64,000 nucleotides of DNA. Source: Myxococcales bacterium. GTDB lineage: Bacteria; Myxococcota_A; Polyangia; Polyangiales; JADJMO01. A program made the translations under genes and the position numbers. The stretch lies in contig JAEUKC010000022.1 of assembly GCA_016794445.1 (NCBI GenBank), positions 1,133 through 65,132 of the forward strand. Reading direction: 5' to 3'. The notes under the pieces were generated by a model. It saw only the letters and a program-made list of their open reading frames with translations. It made no database searches and had not been told where the DNA came from. Positions 30,106 through 63,903 of the stretch are shown here, piece after piece (positions within the stretch are counted from its first letter, which is position 1; each line of letters starts with the position of its first letter).

Positions 30106-30531
30106 TCAGGGATCCGACACGGACGGCAGGCGGCGCCGCACCGCCGCGACGAAGGCCTCGAGGTCGCCCAACCGATGCTCGACGACGTCGCGGACGATGG
30201 CCAGATCCACGTCGGCGTAGCCGTGCACCAGCACGTTGCGAAAGCCGGCCATGGCCACCAGCGGTCGCTGCAGCGTGGCAGGGAACCACCCCGCATTCCC
30301 GAGGAGCTCGAACAGCTCCTTGTTCGTCCGGGGCTCGCCGAGGTGATCGTCCGAGACGACGTGCGAGGCGACGTCGAGCGCCGCCTGGATCGCGATCTGC
30401 AGCGTGTGCTCGATGAAGCGGCGCTCGCGGACGTCCTCTTCGATGCGGTCGGCGTGGGCCAGCGCGCGGAGCTCGGCGAGGCTCCGCTCGATCACGGCGA
30501 GCTTCTTGGCGACGAGCTCGGCCTCGGTCAC
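30106..30531 (-). CDS. hepT: HepT (DUF86) RNase toxin, type VII toxin-antitoxin
   Basis: Rx4HxY motif RNVLVHGY. GTG start in a GTGA overlap with the mntA stop. Confidence 0.85.
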   Translation of the reverse strand: MTEAELVAKKLAVIERSLAELRALAHADRIEEDVRERRFIEHTLQIAIQAALDVASHVVSDDHLGEPRTNKELFELLGNAGWFPATLQRPLVAMAGFRNVLVHGYADVDLAIVRDVVEHRLGDLEAFVAAVRRRLPSVSDP

Positions 30532-30914
30532 GGGGCGAGCCTCCGCACACGGCGGCGCACCGGCTCGAGGTCGAACCACTCGTTGCGCTTGAACACCTCG
30601 AAGGCGATGCGCGCGGCGCGGTCGCGCTCGACGACCAGGACGCCGTCGCGCAGCACCCGGTGGACGAGGTCGGAGTCGGCGCCGTCGAGCAGGACGAGGT
30701 CGACCCGCGAGCCCACCGCCTCTTCGACGGCGGCCTCGAGCTCCACGGGCCAGTCGTCGAGCGTGCGCGGCCGCGGCCTCCCGCGGAGCACCGCCACGTC
30801 GACGTCGCTGCCTTCGTGCGCGTCCCCGCGCGCCTGGCTCCCGAAGAGCCACGCGCAGACGACGTCGGACCGGCCCTCGAGGGCCGCGCGCAGTCTCTCG
30901 GCGAGGGGCGACAC
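30528..30914 (-). CDS. mntA: MntA nucleotidyltransferase antitoxin
   Basis: GS-x10-DxD motif LFGSQARGDAHEGSDVDVAV. Immediately upstream of and overlapping hepT. Confidence 0.85.
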   Translation of the reverse strand: MSPLAERLRAALEGRSDVVCAWLFGSQARGDAHEGSDVDVAVLRGRPRPRTLDDWPVELEAAVEEAVGSRVDLVLLDGADSDLVHRVLRDGVLVVERDRAARIAFEVFKRNEWFDLEPVRRRVRRLAP

Positions 30915-30926
30915 CCCCTTACTGTA

Positions 30927-31505
30927 CTACTGCGCGTCCGCCAGGATCTGATCGGCGTGCACGGCCGGGTCGACCTTCGGGTAGACCTTCTTGATCTTGC
31001 CGTCGGTCCCGATCAGGTAGCTCACGCGCGACGCGTAGCCGCCGTTGACCGCGACGCCGAAGCGCTTGCAGATCGATTGATCGGTGTCGGCGACGAGGGG
31101 GAACGGGAGCTTGTACTTGGCGGCGAACGCCTTGTGGCTCGCGTCGTCGTCGACGCTCACGCCGATGACCTGGATGCCCGCCTTCTGCAGCTTGTCCCAC
31201 GCGTCGCGGAACGCGCAGGCCTCCTTGGTGCAGCCCGGCGTGTCGTCCTTGGGGTAGAAATACACGACGATGTGCTTGCCCTTGAGGGCCCCGAGGTCGA
31301 CCTTCGTGCCGTCGGCGGCCGTGGCCACCAGCGCGGGGGCCGGGTCGCCCTCCTTGGGAGGCGCCGCCTCGGCGGTGGGGCTGGCCCCGGAGACCGTGGC
31401 GCTCGTGCTGGGGCTCGCCCCCGGCGTCGGCGTCGACTCCTTGCAACCCACGGGACCGACGGCGAGGGCGAGGAGGGCGACGGCGAGCGAGCGCATGGCG
31501 ATCAT
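30927..31505 (-). CDS. bcp: peroxiredoxin (Bcp type) with lipoprotein signal
   Basis: FYPKDDTPGCTKEAC active site. N-terminal MIAMRSLAVALLALAVGPVGC. Confidence 0.9.
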   Translation of the reverse strand: MIAMRSLAVALLALAVGPVGCKESTPTPGASPSTSATVSGASPTAEAAPPKEGDPAPALVATAADGTKVDLGALKGKHIVVYFYPKDDTPGCTKEACAFRDAWDKLQKAGIQVIGVSVDDDASHKAFAAKYKLPFPLVADTDQSICKRFGVAVNGGYASRVSYLIGTDGKIKKVYPKVDPAVHADQILADAQ

Positions 31506-58252: not shown

Positions 58253-59938
58253 TCAGTGATCGTGCTGTTCGGGGGCCTCGGGCTCGTCGTCCGGGAACGT
58301 GAAGGTCGGCGGCGGATCGTCCTTCACGCGCTTGGTCTCGAACACCCACCACTTGCCGCGGTGCAGGACCACGTCGACCTCGTTCGCGTGCGTGCCCCAC
58401 ACCGAGGCGCGCGGGTCCTTGCCGTCGTCGTAGGTGGTCTTCATGAGCACGAGGTCGAAGTACTTGGCGAAGGCCATGCCCGGCCGGTAGTCGCTCGGGT
58501 TCCACTCGAAGTTCGCCGGCGGATCGGGCGGCATCATCTCCCGCTTGTAGTGCACGGGCAGGCTCATGGTGCGCGTGAACGAGAACGCCACCTCCCCCCC
58601 GTTGCGCGCCACGTAGTAGGCCGGCGAGTGCAGGAGCGACCACTGCTCGGTGGCCTCGATCTTGGGGTGCCACACGAGGCCGGTGATCCGGCGGCCCTTG
58701 GGCATCGCGTCGAGGATGGCGTCGAGGTCGGCCATCTCGGTCCGGACCGCGCCCATGAAGAGGAAGAAGCTCGCCGCCGCGCCGAGGCCGACCGACACGC
58801 TCATGAGGCGCACGAGCTCCTCCTTCTCGGGCATCGCGCGCGGCGCGAACAGCGCGGCGGTGATGACGATGAAGAACGTGAGGCGCTCGAAGACGAAGTT
58901 GGTCGCCCAGAACACGTGCGGGATGACGAAGTACGCGACGAGCGACGCCACGAACATCCAGCGCAGCTGCGCCGGCGCCTCGTCGTCGGGGTCGCGGAAC
59001 AGCGCGGCGAGGAGCAGGAGCCCGAGGCCGACGCCGAGGATCTTCTGGTCGAGCATGTCGGCGCGGAGGCCGGCGCCGTAGCCGAGGAAGCCCTTCACCT
59101 TCTGCATGGCGAAGACGTCGTTGCCCTCGTAGGCGCCGTACTCGAAGTTCTGCCACGCGAGGCGCTGCTGGCGCCGGTACACCCAGGCGCAGAACGCCAC
59201 GGCCGGCAGGAGCGGCGCGCCGATGCGCAGCGCCCGCCCGAGCCGGGCGAAGAGGCCCTCCCGCGAGACCTGCACCTTGGCCACGATCGCGACCAGCATG
59301 AGCATGTAGACGAGCGCCGAGGCGAGCAGGTGGGTCCACGCGCCCACCGTGGCGAGCAGCGCGGTGAGCAGGTCGAAGCGCAGCCGCTTCTCCGCGGGCA
59401 CCTGGCCCTCTTGGCGCGCGAGCACGCGCGCGAGGACGAGCATCTGCACCGCCGCGCCGAGCCCGAAGTTGATGAACCCCCAGGCGAACGTGTACCCGAC
59501 GAACACCGGCAAGACGAGGAACGCCCGCGCGCGCGGCCGACCGGTGGCGCGACACAGGGCGAGGGCCGCGAACCCGAGCAGCACCATGTAGCCGCTCACC
59601 ACGAGGCGCCCCGCGGTGTCGATGGGGACCACGAGCCCGAGCCCCGCCACCAGCACGTGGAAGGCGGAGTTGTAGCTGAGGAGGTTGGTCTCGAAGAGCG
59701 CCCGCTCGGGGGCGCCGCTCGCCATCATGCGCCGGAGGGTGCCGGCGAGGGCGAGGTGCTGGGGGTAGTCGACGAGTGGCAGGAGGCGCGTGCGGAAGAG
59801 GCCGCCCACGAGCAACAGGATGGCGCCCCAGTAGGCGAGGCTCAGCGACTTGCCACCAGCGTCCCACGGTGGGGCGGTGCGCGAGAGCTCGGCGTCGGCG
59901 CGCGCGTCGAGCGGCGGGATCTCCTCGTCTTCGGCCAT
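58253..59938 (-). CDS. large polytopic membrane protein with C-terminal soluble domain (function unknown)
   Basis: 561 aa with about 10 hydrophobic helices, then about 170 residues of hydrophilic domain. Confidence 0.75.
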   Translation of the reverse strand: MAEDEEIPPLDARADAELSRTAPPWDAGGKSLSLAYWGAILLLVGGLFRTRLLPLVDYPQHLALAGTLRRMMASGAPERALFETNLLSYNSAFHVLVAGLGLVVPIDTAGRLVVSGYMVLLGFAALALCRATGRPRARAFLVLPVFVGYTFAWGFINFGLGAAVQMLVLARVLARQEGQVPAEKRLRFDLLTALLATVGAWTHLLASALVYMLMLVAIVAKVQVSREGLFARLGRALRIGAPLLPAVAFCAWVYRRQQRLAWQNFEYGAYEGNDVFAMQKVKGFLGYGAGLRADMLDQKILGVGLGLLLLAALFRDPDDEAPAQLRWMFVASLVAYFVIPHVFWATNFVFERLTFFIVITAALFAPRAMPEKEELVRLMSVSVGLGAAASFFLFMGAVRTEMADLDAILDAMPKGRRITGLVWHPKIEATEQWSLLHSPAYYVARNGGEVAFSFTRTMSLPVHYKREMMPPDPPANFEWNPSDYRPGMAFAKYFDLVLMKTTYDDGKDPRASVWGTHANEVDVVLHRGKWWVFETKRVKDDPPPTFTFPDDEPEAPEQHDH

Positions 59939-59981: not shown

Positions 59982-60467
59982 TCAGGAGACGAGGTCGGGC
60001 GGGGCGAGCGGGCCGATGGCGGCGCCGAAGCAGTCGCAGATGCTGCTCGCGGCGTCCGCGCAGGTGCACGAGTCGCCGCAGGAGATGGTCCCGCACGGGG
60101 CGGTCGCCGCGTCGGTGCTCGGCTCGCAGGTGGCGGTCGTGGAGCTCGCGACGCACACCTTGCCCGGCGCGCAGTCGACGAGCGTGAAGCCCACCCCCGC
60201 GCTCATCCGGCACTTGTTGGTGACCGGCGCGTCGCTCGCGACGTCGGTGGAGCCATCGCGGGCGTCGGGCGCAGCATCGGTGACGAGCGTGTCCGTCACG
60301 CTGTCGGCGACGAGGGTGTCCGTGCCGCTGTCCGCCACCGCGGTGTCGACGGCCGCGCCGTCGGCGACCGTGCCCGTGTCGGTGGTGGCCGTCTCGCTCG
60401 AGGACGACGATCAGCCGGCCGCCGCGGTGGAGAGGAGACAGAGCGCGCGAAGGAAGGGGAGCTTCAT
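59982..60467 (-). pseudogene. Cys-rich secreted lipoprotein gene interrupted by an in-frame TGA at the lipobox Cys codon
   Basis: ATG 60467: MKLPFLRALCLLSTAAAG, then TGA (60411-60413), then in frame SSSSSETATTDTG... continuing into track ORF 59982..60338 (8 Cys). TGC/TGT at that codon would give the lipobox AAAG-C-SSS. Confidence 0.6.
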
Positions 60468-60498: not shown

Positions 60499-61698
60499 TC
60501 ACGCGGGCGGCTTGTTGCAGCCGAACACCACGTCCACGGCCTTGACCTTCTCGGCCTTGATGTCGGCGCAGAACGACCCGTAGAACGTGACGGTGTTGGT
60601 GGTCGGGTCGTAGTCCCAGCCGTTGGTCTTGGTGGTGTCGCGCGGCACCTCGGTGCCCTTGTCGAAGAACGCGAAGATCTTCGTCGAGTCGGGCGGGGTC
60701 TTGCCGAGCTTGAACACGCAGCCGAGGGCCGTGCTGCCGATGGTGGTGAGGGCCTTGTCGAGCGACGTGGCGTCTTCGGCCTTGAAGAACTTGGGGCTCG
60801 CTGCGGCCGCGGGGACCCCGCCCGCCGCCGCGAACGAGTCCATCGCCGCCGTGTCGACGGCGCTGCCGAAGCCGATCACGAAGGTCTTCACGCCGCGCTT
60901 GGTGGCGAGGTCGGTGATGGCGGCCAGGGTGCCGGCGTCGCCGCCGCCGGCCGTGCAGCCGGCCTGCGCGCCGTCGGTGAGCAGGAGCACGTAGCTCTGG
61001 CGGGTGGCGTCGCCGAGCCCTGGGTCGGTGGCCGCCTGCTTCATGGCGGTGTCGATGTTGGTGACGCACGGGCCGTCGGGGAAGAACGGGTCGGTCGTCT
61101 TGAGCGCGCTGCTCAACATGGTCGAGATCTTGGTCTCGTTGTCCGGGCCGAGCGGGATCGGGATCGTCCCCTGGCTGCACTTGTCCGCGTCGGTGTCGGG
61201 GAACATGATCAGGCCGAAGCGCAGCTTGCCCTTGTACTTCGTGGTCATGTCGGAGATGGCCTGCACGGCGATCTGCCACTTGGTGAGCGCGCCCACCTTG
61301 GCGGTCATCGAGCACGAGCGGTCGAGCACGATGAGCACGTTGGAGGGCACCTTGTCGGCCGAGGCGGACTCGGCGCCGCAGTCGCCGCCCGGGAGGCACG
61401 CGGGCTTGCCGGTCTCCGGGGTGATGCACTTCATGCCAGGCTTGCAGTCGCCGTCGGCCGCGCACGAGTCGGCGTCGATGCACTTGTTGAGGACGCTGCA
61501 CTTCTGCGGAGCGACGCACGCCGGCTTGCAGTCGAGGGTGAGGGTGTCGGCGAGGCCATCCGGAGCGCCGTCGAGATCGATGCCACCCCCCGTGTCGGCG
61601 GGGTCGAGGCTGTCGCTCCCACCTCCGGCGCCGCTGCACGCGACGAGCAGACCGCCCACCAAGACCGCCGAAAGCCCCATCTTGAGCACTGCGCGCAT
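60499..61698 (-). CDS. von Willebrand factor A (VWA) domain lipoprotein with Cys-rich N-terminal module
   Basis: MRAVLKMGLSAVLVGGLLVACSG lipobox. MIDAS motif DRSCSM (DxSxS), later LLTDG. Confidence 0.85.
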   Translation of the reverse strand: MRAVLKMGLSAVLVGGLLVACSGAGGGSDSLDPADTGGGIDLDGAPDGLADTLTLDCKPACVAPQKCSVLNKCIDADSCAADGDCKPGMKCITPETGKPACLPGGDCGAESASADKVPSNVLIVLDRSCSMTAKVGALTKWQIAVQAISDMTTKYKGKLRFGLIMFPDTDADKCSQGTIPIPLGPDNETKISTMLSSALKTTDPFFPDGPCVTNIDTAMKQAATDPGLGDATRQSYVLLLTDGAQAGCTAGGGDAGTLAAITDLATKRGVKTFVIGFGSAVDTAAMDSFAAAGGVPAAAASPKFFKAEDATSLDKALTTIGSTALGCVFKLGKTPPDSTKIFAFFDKGTEVPRDTTKTNGWDYDPTTNTVTFYGSFCADIKAEKVKAVDVVFGCNKPPA

Positions 61699-61733: not shown

Positions 61734-62528
61734 ATGGCACGCGTGGCCACCGCTCGCACCCTCGGCGGGCTCCTCCTGCCCGCCCTCGCGATCCTGGTCG
61801 CAGCGCGGGTGCTGCCGTCGGTCCAGGTAGGACCCGGCGCGGCGGCGGCCGTGGTCTACGTCGGCGCGACCCTGTGCGGAGCGATCGGCGTCGCGCTGAC
61901 GCTGCGCAGCACGGATCGCCCGCTCGTCCTCGCCCCGATCGGCGCCGCCGTGCTGGTCGCGGCCGCGCTCGTGCACGGCGGAGCGTGGCTCGCGGCGCCG
62001 GTGGCCAGCGCGCTCGTGGCCCTCGCGGTCGGCCTCGGCGGCTCGATCGGCCTGCGCGTGCAGCACGCCGGGCACTTCTTGCCCGCGGCGGCGATGGCGG
62101 CGGCCGCCGACATCGTGAGCGTCACCGCCTCCTTCGGCCCCTCGCACGCCATCGCGGAGAGCCCCCGCGCGCTGTCGCTGCTGGCGATCTCGTTCCCCGT
62201 CCCCGGCACCCACCTCGCCGCGCCAGCGCTCGGGGTCGGCGATCTCCTCTTCTTCGCGCTCGCCCTCGGGGTCGCGCGGGCCCACGCGCTCTCCGCGGTG
62301 CGCGTCGGGCTCGCGGGATACCTCGGGGTGCTGCTCGCAGGGCTCCTGTCGGCGGTGCTCGCGGCGCCGATCCCCGCGCTCCCGGCCATCGGGGGCGCGA
62401 TCGTCGCGTTCGTGCCCGAGACCCGCAAGGTGCGGCGCGTCGACCGCACGGCGACGACCATCGCGGTCGGCCTCGCGCTGCTGGCGCTCGCCTGGGCGCT
62501 GGTCCGTGCGAAGATGGCGCCGCCATGA
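61734..62528 (+). CDS. polytopic membrane protein with presenilin/SPP-like GxGD and PAL motifs
   Basis: 264 aa, about 7-8 TM helices. D126 (AAADIV), G167-VGD170 (GVGDLLFF) and P214-AL (IPALPAIGG) in consecutive helices with about 44-residue spacing. Confidence 0.6.
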   Translation: MARVATARTLGGLLLPALAILVAARVLPSVQVGPGAAAAVVYVGATLCGAIGVALTLRSTDRPLVLAPIGAAVLVAAALVHGGAWLAAPVASALVALAVGLGGSIGLRVQHAGHFLPAAAMAAAADIVSVTASFGPSHAIAESPRALSLLAISFPVPGTHLAAPALGVGDLLFFALALGVARAHALSAVRVGLAGYLGVLLAGLLSAVLAAPIPALPAIGGAIVAFVPETRKVRRVDRTATTIAVGLALLALAWALVRAKMAPP

Positions 62529-63238
62529 AGCGCCTGCTCTACGCCCACCGCGGCGCGTGCGCCGAGCTCCCGGAGAACACGCTCGAGGCGTTCGCGCTCG
62601 CCCTCGAGCTCGGCGCCGACGCCATCGAGACCGACGTGCACCTCACGCGCGACGGACACGTGGTGGTGTTCCACGACGACACCGGTGCCCGCGTGGCAGC
62701 AATGTCAGCAAGGGTCCGCGACTGCACCCTGGCCGAGCTCCGCACCTGGGATCTCGGCAAGGTGCGCGGCCTCCCTGTGCACCACATCCCCACGTTCGAC
62801 GAGGCGCTGGCCCGCTTCCCCGACACGTTCTTCAACGTCGACGCCAAGGTGCCCGCGGTGATCGACCCGCTGCTCGCCGTCATCGAACGGCACCGCGCGG
62901 CCCACCGCGTCCGCCTCGCGAGCTTCTCCGCGCGCAACCTGCGCAAGATCCGGCGCCTCGGCTACCGCGGCGAGACCGGCCTCGGCGACGACGAGGTCGT
63001 GCGGTTCCTCGTGCAGCCGAGGGTGCTCCCGCTGCCGGGCGACGCGCTGCAGATCCCCACCGCGTTCGGCCCGCTCCGGCTCGACAACCGGCGCACGATC
63101 GACCGCGTGCACGCGTTCGGCAAGCGGGTGGACTTCTGGGTGATCGACGACGCGGCCGAGGCGCAGCGCCTGTTCGACCTCGGCGCGGACGGCGTGATGA
63201 CCAACGACCCGCGCGCCCTCCGCGAGGTGCGCCGATGA
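62525..63238 (+). CDS. glycerophosphodiester phosphodiesterase family protein
   Basis: AHRGACAELPENTLEAF, ETDVHLTRDGHVVVFHD, FWVIDD...GADGVMTNDP. ATGA overlap with the upstream gene. Confidence 0.9.
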   Translation: MKRLLYAHRGACAELPENTLEAFALALELGADAIETDVHLTRDGHVVVFHDDTGARVAAMSARVRDCTLAELRTWDLGKVRGLPVHHIPTFDEALARFPDTFFNVDAKVPAVIDPLLAVIERHRAAHRVRLASFSARNLRKIRRLGYRGETGLGDDEVVRFLVQPRVLPLPGDALQIPTAFGPLRLDNRRTIDRVHAFGKRVDFWVIDDAAEAQRLFDLGADGVMTNDPRALREVRR

Positions 63239-63903
63239 CCCTCGTGCTGCGGCTCACCAGCGGTGCGCGAACCATCGAGCCCGCCGAGGCCCATGTGATG
63301 CTCTCGCGCCGCGCCGGGCTGCCCGGTGCCTACGGGTGGGACCAGGCGGCCCACGTGCTCCGCGCGCTCGAGGCCGAGGGGGTGGGCGCGATCGCGCTCT
63401 TGCCGCTCGCGCTGCCCACGAGCTGGATGGTCAACGCCAAGGCCACCTCGCGCACGTTCCGGGCGTGGCTCACCCCGCGCTGGCACGCCGCCTTCGAGGG
63501 CGTGCTCGCGGCCCTCGATCCGAGCCAGCCGTGGCCCGAGCTCGACGGGGCCCGCATCCAGGGCTTCGTCGAGGAGCTGGCGCGCGCGCCCGGGGCCGGC
63601 CTCGCTGCCCTCACCAAGGTGCTCGCGCTGCTGCGACCGTCGCTCGTGCCCTTGATGGACGACTCGGCGCTCGCCGTCACGCTCGGGGTCGTGCCCCTGC
63701 CCGAGACCGACGACGCGCCCGCGGCCGGGCCGGAGCACTTCACGCCGATGATGGACTGGTTCCACCGCGAGCTCGCACGCAACGAGCGGGCCCTGGTCGA
63801 CCTCGCGCGCGATCACACCGAGGCTGTCCTCGAGCCCGCGCAGGTGCTCGATCGGGTGCTCTGGTACGTGAGCTTCGGCCACCGGCACTTTCCGCCGGGA
63901 TAG
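63235..63903 (+). CDS. hypothetical protein
   Basis: 222-aa in-frame segment of track ORF 62506..63903, starting at an ATGA overlap with the GDPD stop. Contains LTKVLALLRPSLVPLMDD and VLDRVLWYVSF. No function recognised. Confidence 0.55.
   Translation: MTLVLRLTSGARTIEPAEAHVMLSRRAGLPGAYGWDQAAHVLRALEAEGVGAIALLPLALPTSWMVNAKATSRTFRAWLTPRWHAAFEGVLAALDPSQPWPELDGARIQGFVEELARAPGAGLAALTKVLALLRPSLVPLMDDSALAVTLGVVPLPETDDAPAAGPEHFTPMMDWFHRELARNERALVDLARDHTEAVLEPAQVLDRVLWYVSFGHRHFPPG

Follow-up and report, generated by a model that had tools for sequence, protein, structure and literature searches.

In a metagenome-assembled genome (MAG) of a Myxococcales bacterium, a small gene for a cysteine-rich lipoprotein carries an in-frame TGA at the very codon where the cysteine of its lipobox is expected. 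Several explanations have to be weighed: the stop may be decoded as an amino acid, it may be a nonsense mutation, it may be an error of the assembly, or the true gene may be a shorter one that starts further downstream. The stretch of DNA that was analysed, 64,000 nucleotides in length, is called the window below. The comparisons presented here argue for a very recent, strain-specific nonsense mutation that is a real variant, fixed or in the majority, a reading to which we give a probability of roughly 0.6.

A reading frame interrupted at codon 19

The frame opens on the minus strand with an ATG (60467-60465), runs through the 18 codons of MKLPFLRALCLLSTAAAG to a TGA (60413-60411), and then continues in-frame for 142 sense codons to a terminal TGA (59984-59982). 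These are the positions given by the earlier note, which was made from the letters of the window; its count of 8 cysteines downstream of the internal stop has to be raised to 10. GC3 stays at 0.9-1.0 in one frame from the ATG through the internal TGA and beyond, indicating a single coding frame that contains a stop, and in tblastn comparisons with orthologs residues 1-161 are collinear with one stop. A frameshift in place of a nonsense change can be dismissed: GC3 is continuous across the TGA and the ortholog alignment is ungapped. If the TGA is real, the normal start yields only the 18-residue peptide. The features of the locus are collected in Table 1.

Table 1. Features of the interrupted lipoprotein gene and of its two neighbours (window coordinates).
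Feature	Position	Strand	Basis or remark
Ancestral full-length CDS, small Cys-rich lipoprotein, interrupted here at codon 19	59982..60467	-	161 codons plus stop
Signal-peptide segment MKLPFLRALCLLSTAAAG, 18 aa	60414..60467	-	Conserved in family alignment
Premature TGA at the lipobox +1 Cys codon	60411..60413	-	TGC in L001-L014, TGA in the window only
C-terminal domain, residues 85-161, 10 invariant Cys, ends GPLAPPDL, predicted all-beta	59985..60215	-	Family alignment, AlphaFold2
Residual ORF, 118 aa	59982..60338	-	P0003; GenBank MBL8714737.1, JNL79_02010, 'hypothetical protein', Myxococcales bacterium MAG
Upstream gene, 399-aa VWA-domain lipoprotein, lipobox LLVAC|SG, intact	60499-61698	-	Pfam VWA 32.6 bits, VWA_2 30.4 bits
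Downstream gene, 561-aa polytopic membrane protein, intact	58253-59938	-	9 hydrophobic TM-like segments

With a cysteine put at codon 19, the N-terminus satisfies the PROSITE PS51257-type lipobox rule (A-A-G-C, the Cys being residue 19), in which a Cys stands at +1 after [LIVMFWSTAG]2-[LIVMFYSTAGCQ]-[AGS], within residues 15-35. The n- and h-regions also conform: K2 and R7 are present, D, E, R and K are absent from residues 8-18, and both features are conserved in relatives. The invariant +1 Cys itself is missing from the window allele (TGA at codon 19) and is present in all 14 related loci, as Cys18 or Cys19. The proposal that a cysteine at the TGA would complete a signal peptide and lipobox thus passed the rule test, and it is also realised in nature: an identical 161-residue protein with Cys19 exists in nine other assemblies, so that the lipobox pattern reflects homology and not chance. 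Judged by these sequence rules, the ancestral gene is predicted to encode a bacterial lipoprotein, and the allele written in the window falls outside that class.

The relatives were collected by a protein search in which codon 19 was read as Cys, and which returned one cluster of five sequences (P0001-P0005). P0003 is the 118-aa GenBank protein and equals the residual ORF of the window. One of these (P0004, 161 aa; nine Logan assemblies, runs SRR14092364-95) equals the conceptual translation of the window gene except that it has Cys19, and two others (P0001 and P0002; GCA_964269395.1, GCA_016709545.1, one ENA assembly and one JGI assembly) are 97% identical and also have Cys19; these three are intact 161-residue orthologs. 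In P0005 (160 aa, ENA) the signal peptide is one codon shorter by deletion and the cysteine is Cys18. The ortholog alignment that the earlier note had proposed as a check on the codon was made on DNA at 14 related loci (L001-L014), drawn from at least 13 independent assemblies. The homologous codon is TGC (Cys) at 14 of 14, and TGA occurs in the window alone, from which a single transversion at 60411 separates it (C>A on the coding strand, G>T on the plus strand). Eight of the 14 loci are 99.4-99.8% identical to the window without gaps, and polarisation with outgroup genomes (about 96% identical) makes TGA the derived state.

The ATG and the intergenic region upstream of it are invariant across relatives. 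Taken together with some 75 nt past codon 19, this segment shows no difference from the window in the closest strains with TGC (L004, L010 and L014) and differs at few positions in the group of about 96% identity. Since TGC stands in the relatives and a G/A-Cys lipobox opens the distant members of the family, cysteine is ancestral both within the species and across the family. Pattern scans of JGI metagenomes and GTDB representatives, run with the third codon base left free, found no further carriers of TGA and returned only two contigs, both already known and both TGC.

One allele at 99.4% identity (L014 305-787, ENA ERZ926194) has lost 3 nt in-frame from the h-region of its signal peptide (STAAAGC to STAAGC). 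The h-region varies in length and the Cys codon is kept.

A real variant or an error of the consensus

The earlier note considered a TGC/TGT-to-TGA nonsense mutation or a base-call error to be the simplest reading, and the comparison agrees: TGC stands at all 14 related loci and the window is one base away from it. Fourteen intact relatives, a sense codon (TGC) in each and a single-base difference are the picture of a nonsense pseudogene, and we lean towards the base at 60411 being biologically real. The nearest strain, represented by Logan contigs, shares 99.65-99.81% identity with the window, and the alignment has 0 gaps over up to 7.3 kb. The fixed differences number 14, namely 11 synonymous, 2 missense (both in a 264-aa hypothetical gene) and 1 nonsense, and this strong synonymous bias points to genuine strain polymorphism filtered by purifying selection and not to random errors. 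Three other changes are derived in the window lineage (61465, 60871 and 60802), all of them synonymous. Over 50-64 kb of the window, all 15 genes held in common with L013 (GCA_016709545.1) are collinear, in alignments that are essentially gap-free, and the one internal stop among them is that at codon 19 of the lipoprotein gene.

That the MAG consensus is wrong at this base through a base-call or polishing error, and that the organism has TGC and an intact lipoprotein, is a possibility to be taken seriously, although it falls short of an even chance. It is favoured by the presence of TGA in one assembly against TGC at 14 loci that include near-identical strains, by the fact that this is the sole gene-disrupting difference in the region, in a gene with no other decay, by the metagenomic origin of the genome, and by the change itself, G>T on the plus strand being of the oxidative-damage class of artefacts, a classic one. 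The local consensus nevertheless looks accurate: comparison with relatives of 99.8% identity shows no indels over 7.3 kb, the 15 genes and the rest of the 64 kb are free of frameshifts, and the three other window-derived changes, all being synonymous, appear real.

The lipoprotein gene itself contains no further window-specific change, which makes the event recent, if it is real. This absence of secondary decay is equally compatible with an error and with a very recent mutation. At about 4 per 10 kb, real differences are dense in this region, much more so than would be expected of errors, and errors are evidently rare in the assembly; nonsense changes, for their part, are strongly under-represented among real fixed differences, which they are not among errors. 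Our weighting of the two readings follows from the density of real differences and from the scarcity of nonsense changes among them.

A generally error-prone assembly was considered as well and rejected. Segmentation of the whole 64 kb by codon-position GC found no frameshift junctions; the sole suspicious junction (30,530-30,570, minus strand), where the segmentation had suggested a frameshift, is the normal overlap of two genes at GTGA (30528-30531). These encode a toxin-antitoxin pair of MNT (Polbeta nucleotidyltransferase, PF18765, 63 bits) and HepT (PF01934, 102 bits), located at 30106-30914 on the minus strand; a peroxiredoxin-like gene, ending at 30927, immediately precedes the pair.

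The change from TGC to TGA also creates a GATC (CTGATCG) at 60409-60412 that is absent from the TGC alleles. It is probably irrelevant, and would be of consequence only for an assembly made from long reads whose base-calling is sensitive to methylation.

Under the preferred reading, a real and recent nonsense mutation, the events may be outlined as follows. The gene would have specified a small secreted lipoprotein whose signal peptide carries an A-A-G-Cys lipobox and leads into a disordered linker rich in Asp and Thr, a 10-Cys beta-rich domain and a GPLxPPDL end. In the strain or population of the MAG, one C-to-A transversion would have turned the lipobox Cys codon TGC into the stop TGA, translation from the normal ATG would now stop after 18 residues, and the gene would be a very young pseudogene. 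As to expression, we infer that about 430 nt of untranslated mRNA would lie upstream of the 561-aa membrane-protein gene, which could thereby be exposed to some polarity from the premature stop.

Unlikely recoding of the UGA, and the annotated 118-residue protein

Functional decoding of the UGA, whether by programmed selenocysteine insertion or by appreciable near-cognate readthrough (Cys or Trp), would give a full-length and possibly lipidated protein. The pattern invites the idea: there is an in-frame UGA where the orthologs carry Cys, the classic pattern of Sec/Cys alternation, and UGA is the leakiest of the stop codons. We nevertheless consider it very improbable; recoding is unsupported, and even this low estimate includes trivial leakage. 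Trp, Cys or Arg is inserted when UGA is read through in yeast (PMC4150775), and small amounts of wild-type protein can therefore be imagined. Leaky readthrough would at most give trace amounts of full-length protein, of which the Cys-containing fraction alone could be lipidated.

What speaks against decoding is, first, the sequence that follows the stop. The 83 nt from the UGA onward (60334-60416) fold at -42.3 kcal/mol, against -38 +/- 3.2 for shuffled sequences (z = -1.35; 23 of 200 shuffles are as good). No Rfam family reaches its gathering score anywhere in the window, and between 60200 and 60560 a search at E<=10 gave only three chance matches to unrelated families (E = 2.8-9.3). The one stem pointed out previously, GACGGC-GCG-GCCGTC, is present unchanged in the TGC alleles and is therefore unlinked to the UGA; more generally, the 75 nt or so downstream are the same in the nearest TGC strains, which indicates that no SECIS evolved together with the UGA. 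Thus fold score, Rfam and identity to the TGC alleles all give no sign of a bSECIS stem-loop directly 3' of the UGA. Second, a one-base change against a background of 99.8% identity leaves no time for a recoding apparatus to arise. No tRNA gene, tRNA-Sec included, lies within the 64-kb window.

TGA is also the ordinary stop of this genome region: it terminates 9 of 10 neighbouring genes, at lengths that match those of their orthologs. A scan of the window for internal stops flanked by the same frame returned only antisense-frame artefacts and ordinary gene ends. An alternative code in which UGA is sense (tables 4 and 25) is rejected on the strength of the same nine genes, and of the lack of any other in-frame TGA interrupting the frames of the window.

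An in-frame UGA at the Cys of homologs, as found here, does not by itself discriminate a selenoprotein gene from a nonsense mutation. What does discriminate is the 99.8% nucleotide-identical background, the identical downstream sequence and the absence of a SECIS. Selenocysteine recoding is discarded as a reading on the fold, the Rfam scans and the stem shared with TGC alleles, and these results, together with the use of TGA as the neighbours' normal stop, bear out the doubt about Sec or Cys recoding voiced before. The narrower case, in which the UGA is real and usefully decoded by near-cognate tRNA-Cys or tRNA-Trp, or as Sec without a canonical SECIS, with some full-length protein being made, is slighter still. 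Were it true, with Cys or Sec at +1, a stop codon would specify the lipid-modified residue, and the product would be a translationally throttled lipoprotein.

Least probable of all, to the point that we give it almost no weight, is that the true gene is the 118-aa ORF from the GTG at 60338 and that the upstream 'signal peptide' is a chance ORF: the PGAP annotation is exactly this ORF (MBL8714737.1), but the relatives all share one invariant ATG, from which they encode 160-161 continuous residues, the distant family members start with a homologous signal peptide and lipobox, high GC3 in the same frame spans the ATG through the TGA, no Shine-Dalgarno-like sequence precedes the GTG (context CGACACCGCG GTG), and a 10-Cys domain without an export signal would be implausible. 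The possibility, raised at the outset, that this GTG is the start in orthologs and that they have no signal-peptide ORF is likewise contradicted, orthologs and distant members alike beginning with a signal peptide and lipobox.

MBL8714737.1 is a truncated remnant, and exact look-up found no other record of the truncated product. Its ORF has no signal peptide, and without an export signal the 10-Cys domain would stay in the reducing cytoplasm, where it could neither form disulfides nor reach the envelope; the annotated protein is for this reason most likely non-functional. The entry calls for a pseudogene flag, or for correction should reads show TGC.

The lipoprotein family, its neighbours and known systems

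The lipoprotein has no match in Pfam or NCBIfam. An exhaustive HMMER search added about 16 more distant representatives at 33-54% identity; clustered at 50%, the family has about 16 representatives (P0001 and P0006-P0020). Wherever the N-terminus is intact, family members open with a signal peptide closed by a G/A-Cys lipobox, followed by a variable Asp/Thr-rich linker, 10 invariant cysteines and a C-terminal GPL[PA]PP[DE]L. Among close relatives, five amino-acid changes fall in residues 17-82, the linker, and residues 85-161 show synonymous changes only, a distribution that places the C-terminal domain under purifying selection. An AlphaFold2 model built on a 16-sequence family alignment leaves the N-terminal half disordered and gives a pLDDT of 82-91 over residues ~85-150, where it predicts an all-beta domain of eight short strands (residues 85-147). 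Foldseek found no significant neighbour in the PDB: the best match has an E of about 3, to generic Cys-rich repeats, among them furin repeats of R-spondin and modules of the TNFR or EGF type. The PPPDL motif at the end of the protein could serve as a tag for sorting or for interaction. What is defined here is a small unnamed family of myxobacterial-type lipoproteins with a lipobox, an acidic linker, a 10-Cys domain and a GPLxPPDL end, for which we find no structural neighbour.

The gene was described in the earlier note as lying between a VWA lipoprotein gene and a membrane-protein gene on the same strand, an order confirmed by the VWA domain and lipobox of the one and the 9 TM-like segments of the other. 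The same note's estimate of at least ten other lipoproteins also agrees with a rule-based scan, which picked out 11 ORFs with a lipobox in the window, a few being doubtful, with both of the examples cited (CVGCSSS and LVACGSSS) present. The upstream VWA gene is collinear with its orthologs. The downstream gene starts 44 nt past the lipoprotein stop; its 561-aa product is 99.3% identical to the L013 ortholog without gaps and has no match in Pfam or NCBIfam. The order of the three genes holds within the species cluster. A conserved operon reaching beyond the cluster was considered and discarded, the order being absent around the two distant family members examined.

The VWA neighbour invites comparison with CglB, the adventurous-gliding VWA lipoprotein adhesin of Myxococcus. 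Both are myxobacterial VWA lipoproteins of about 400 residues, and the C-terminal ~85 residues of the neighbour (302-385) match the NCBIfam model of CglB (NF033757) locally. At 36 bits, however, the match stays below the curated cutoff of 200, and this excludes the neighbour as a CglB equivalog. Going by this local similarity, the upstream protein may be a distant CglB-like surface adhesin.

Two further observations concern genes near the locus in relatives. On one Logan contig (L010 153-1622, SRR14092364) the lipoprotein gene is identical to that of the window, and the gene upstream is called with 489 aa and no VWA match, against 399 aa in the window; upstream of the lipoprotein gene, identity between this contig and the window is only 95.7%, and the alignment opens 23 gaps. 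The VWA allele could be divergent or recombinant here, or the contig could be chimeric. In GCA_964269395.1 (L001 6564-7943), GDPD and DUF6308 are called as one 459-aa fusion, whereas the window (62525-63903, plus strand), L002, L003, L004 and L013 carry them as separate genes of 237 aa and 222 aa with a 4-nt overlap. Either the fusion is real or that assembly contains a frameshift or indel.

The scientific weight of the interrupted gene is small, a single premature stop in one MAG being routine. It is an ordinary premature stop, whether in a young pseudogene of this strain or through one wrong base in the consensus, and its placement on the lipobox cysteine is a matter of chance.

Three known systems help to place the case. 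The lipoproteins processed by Lgt and LspA (PS51257) are the class to which the ancestral protein would belong: it and all 14 relatives have a K/R n-region, a hydrophobic h-region and A-[AS]-G-C with the Cys at residue 18-19, and the window holds about ten other such proteins. The window allele differs in that it has no Cys codon and, as written, would be no substrate, and the mature domain falls in no named Pfam or NCBIfam family. Bacterial selenoprotein genes, with UGA-Sec, a bSECIS hairpin and SelA/SelB/SelC/SelD, likewise have an in-frame UGA at the Cys of homologs. Here, in contrast, SECIS-like structure does not rise above background and has no Rfam match, selC is absent from the window, and the UGA allele is found in a single assembly, at 99.8% background identity, with downstream sequence identical to that of the Cys alleles. 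The closest likeness is with nonsense-mutation pseudogenes, or assembly-specific premature stops, in bacterial lipoprotein genes, in which one base turns a sense codon into a stop while sister strains stay intact, and in which automatic annotation moves to the next start codon and reports a shortened ORF. The difference is that the stop falls exactly on the lipid-modified +1 Cys, which is eye-catching and implies no special mechanism, TGC being one step from TGA. The locus is a useful negative control for scans of stop-codon recoding: a UGA at a Cys position mimics selenocysteine, and comparison with close strains resolves it immediately.
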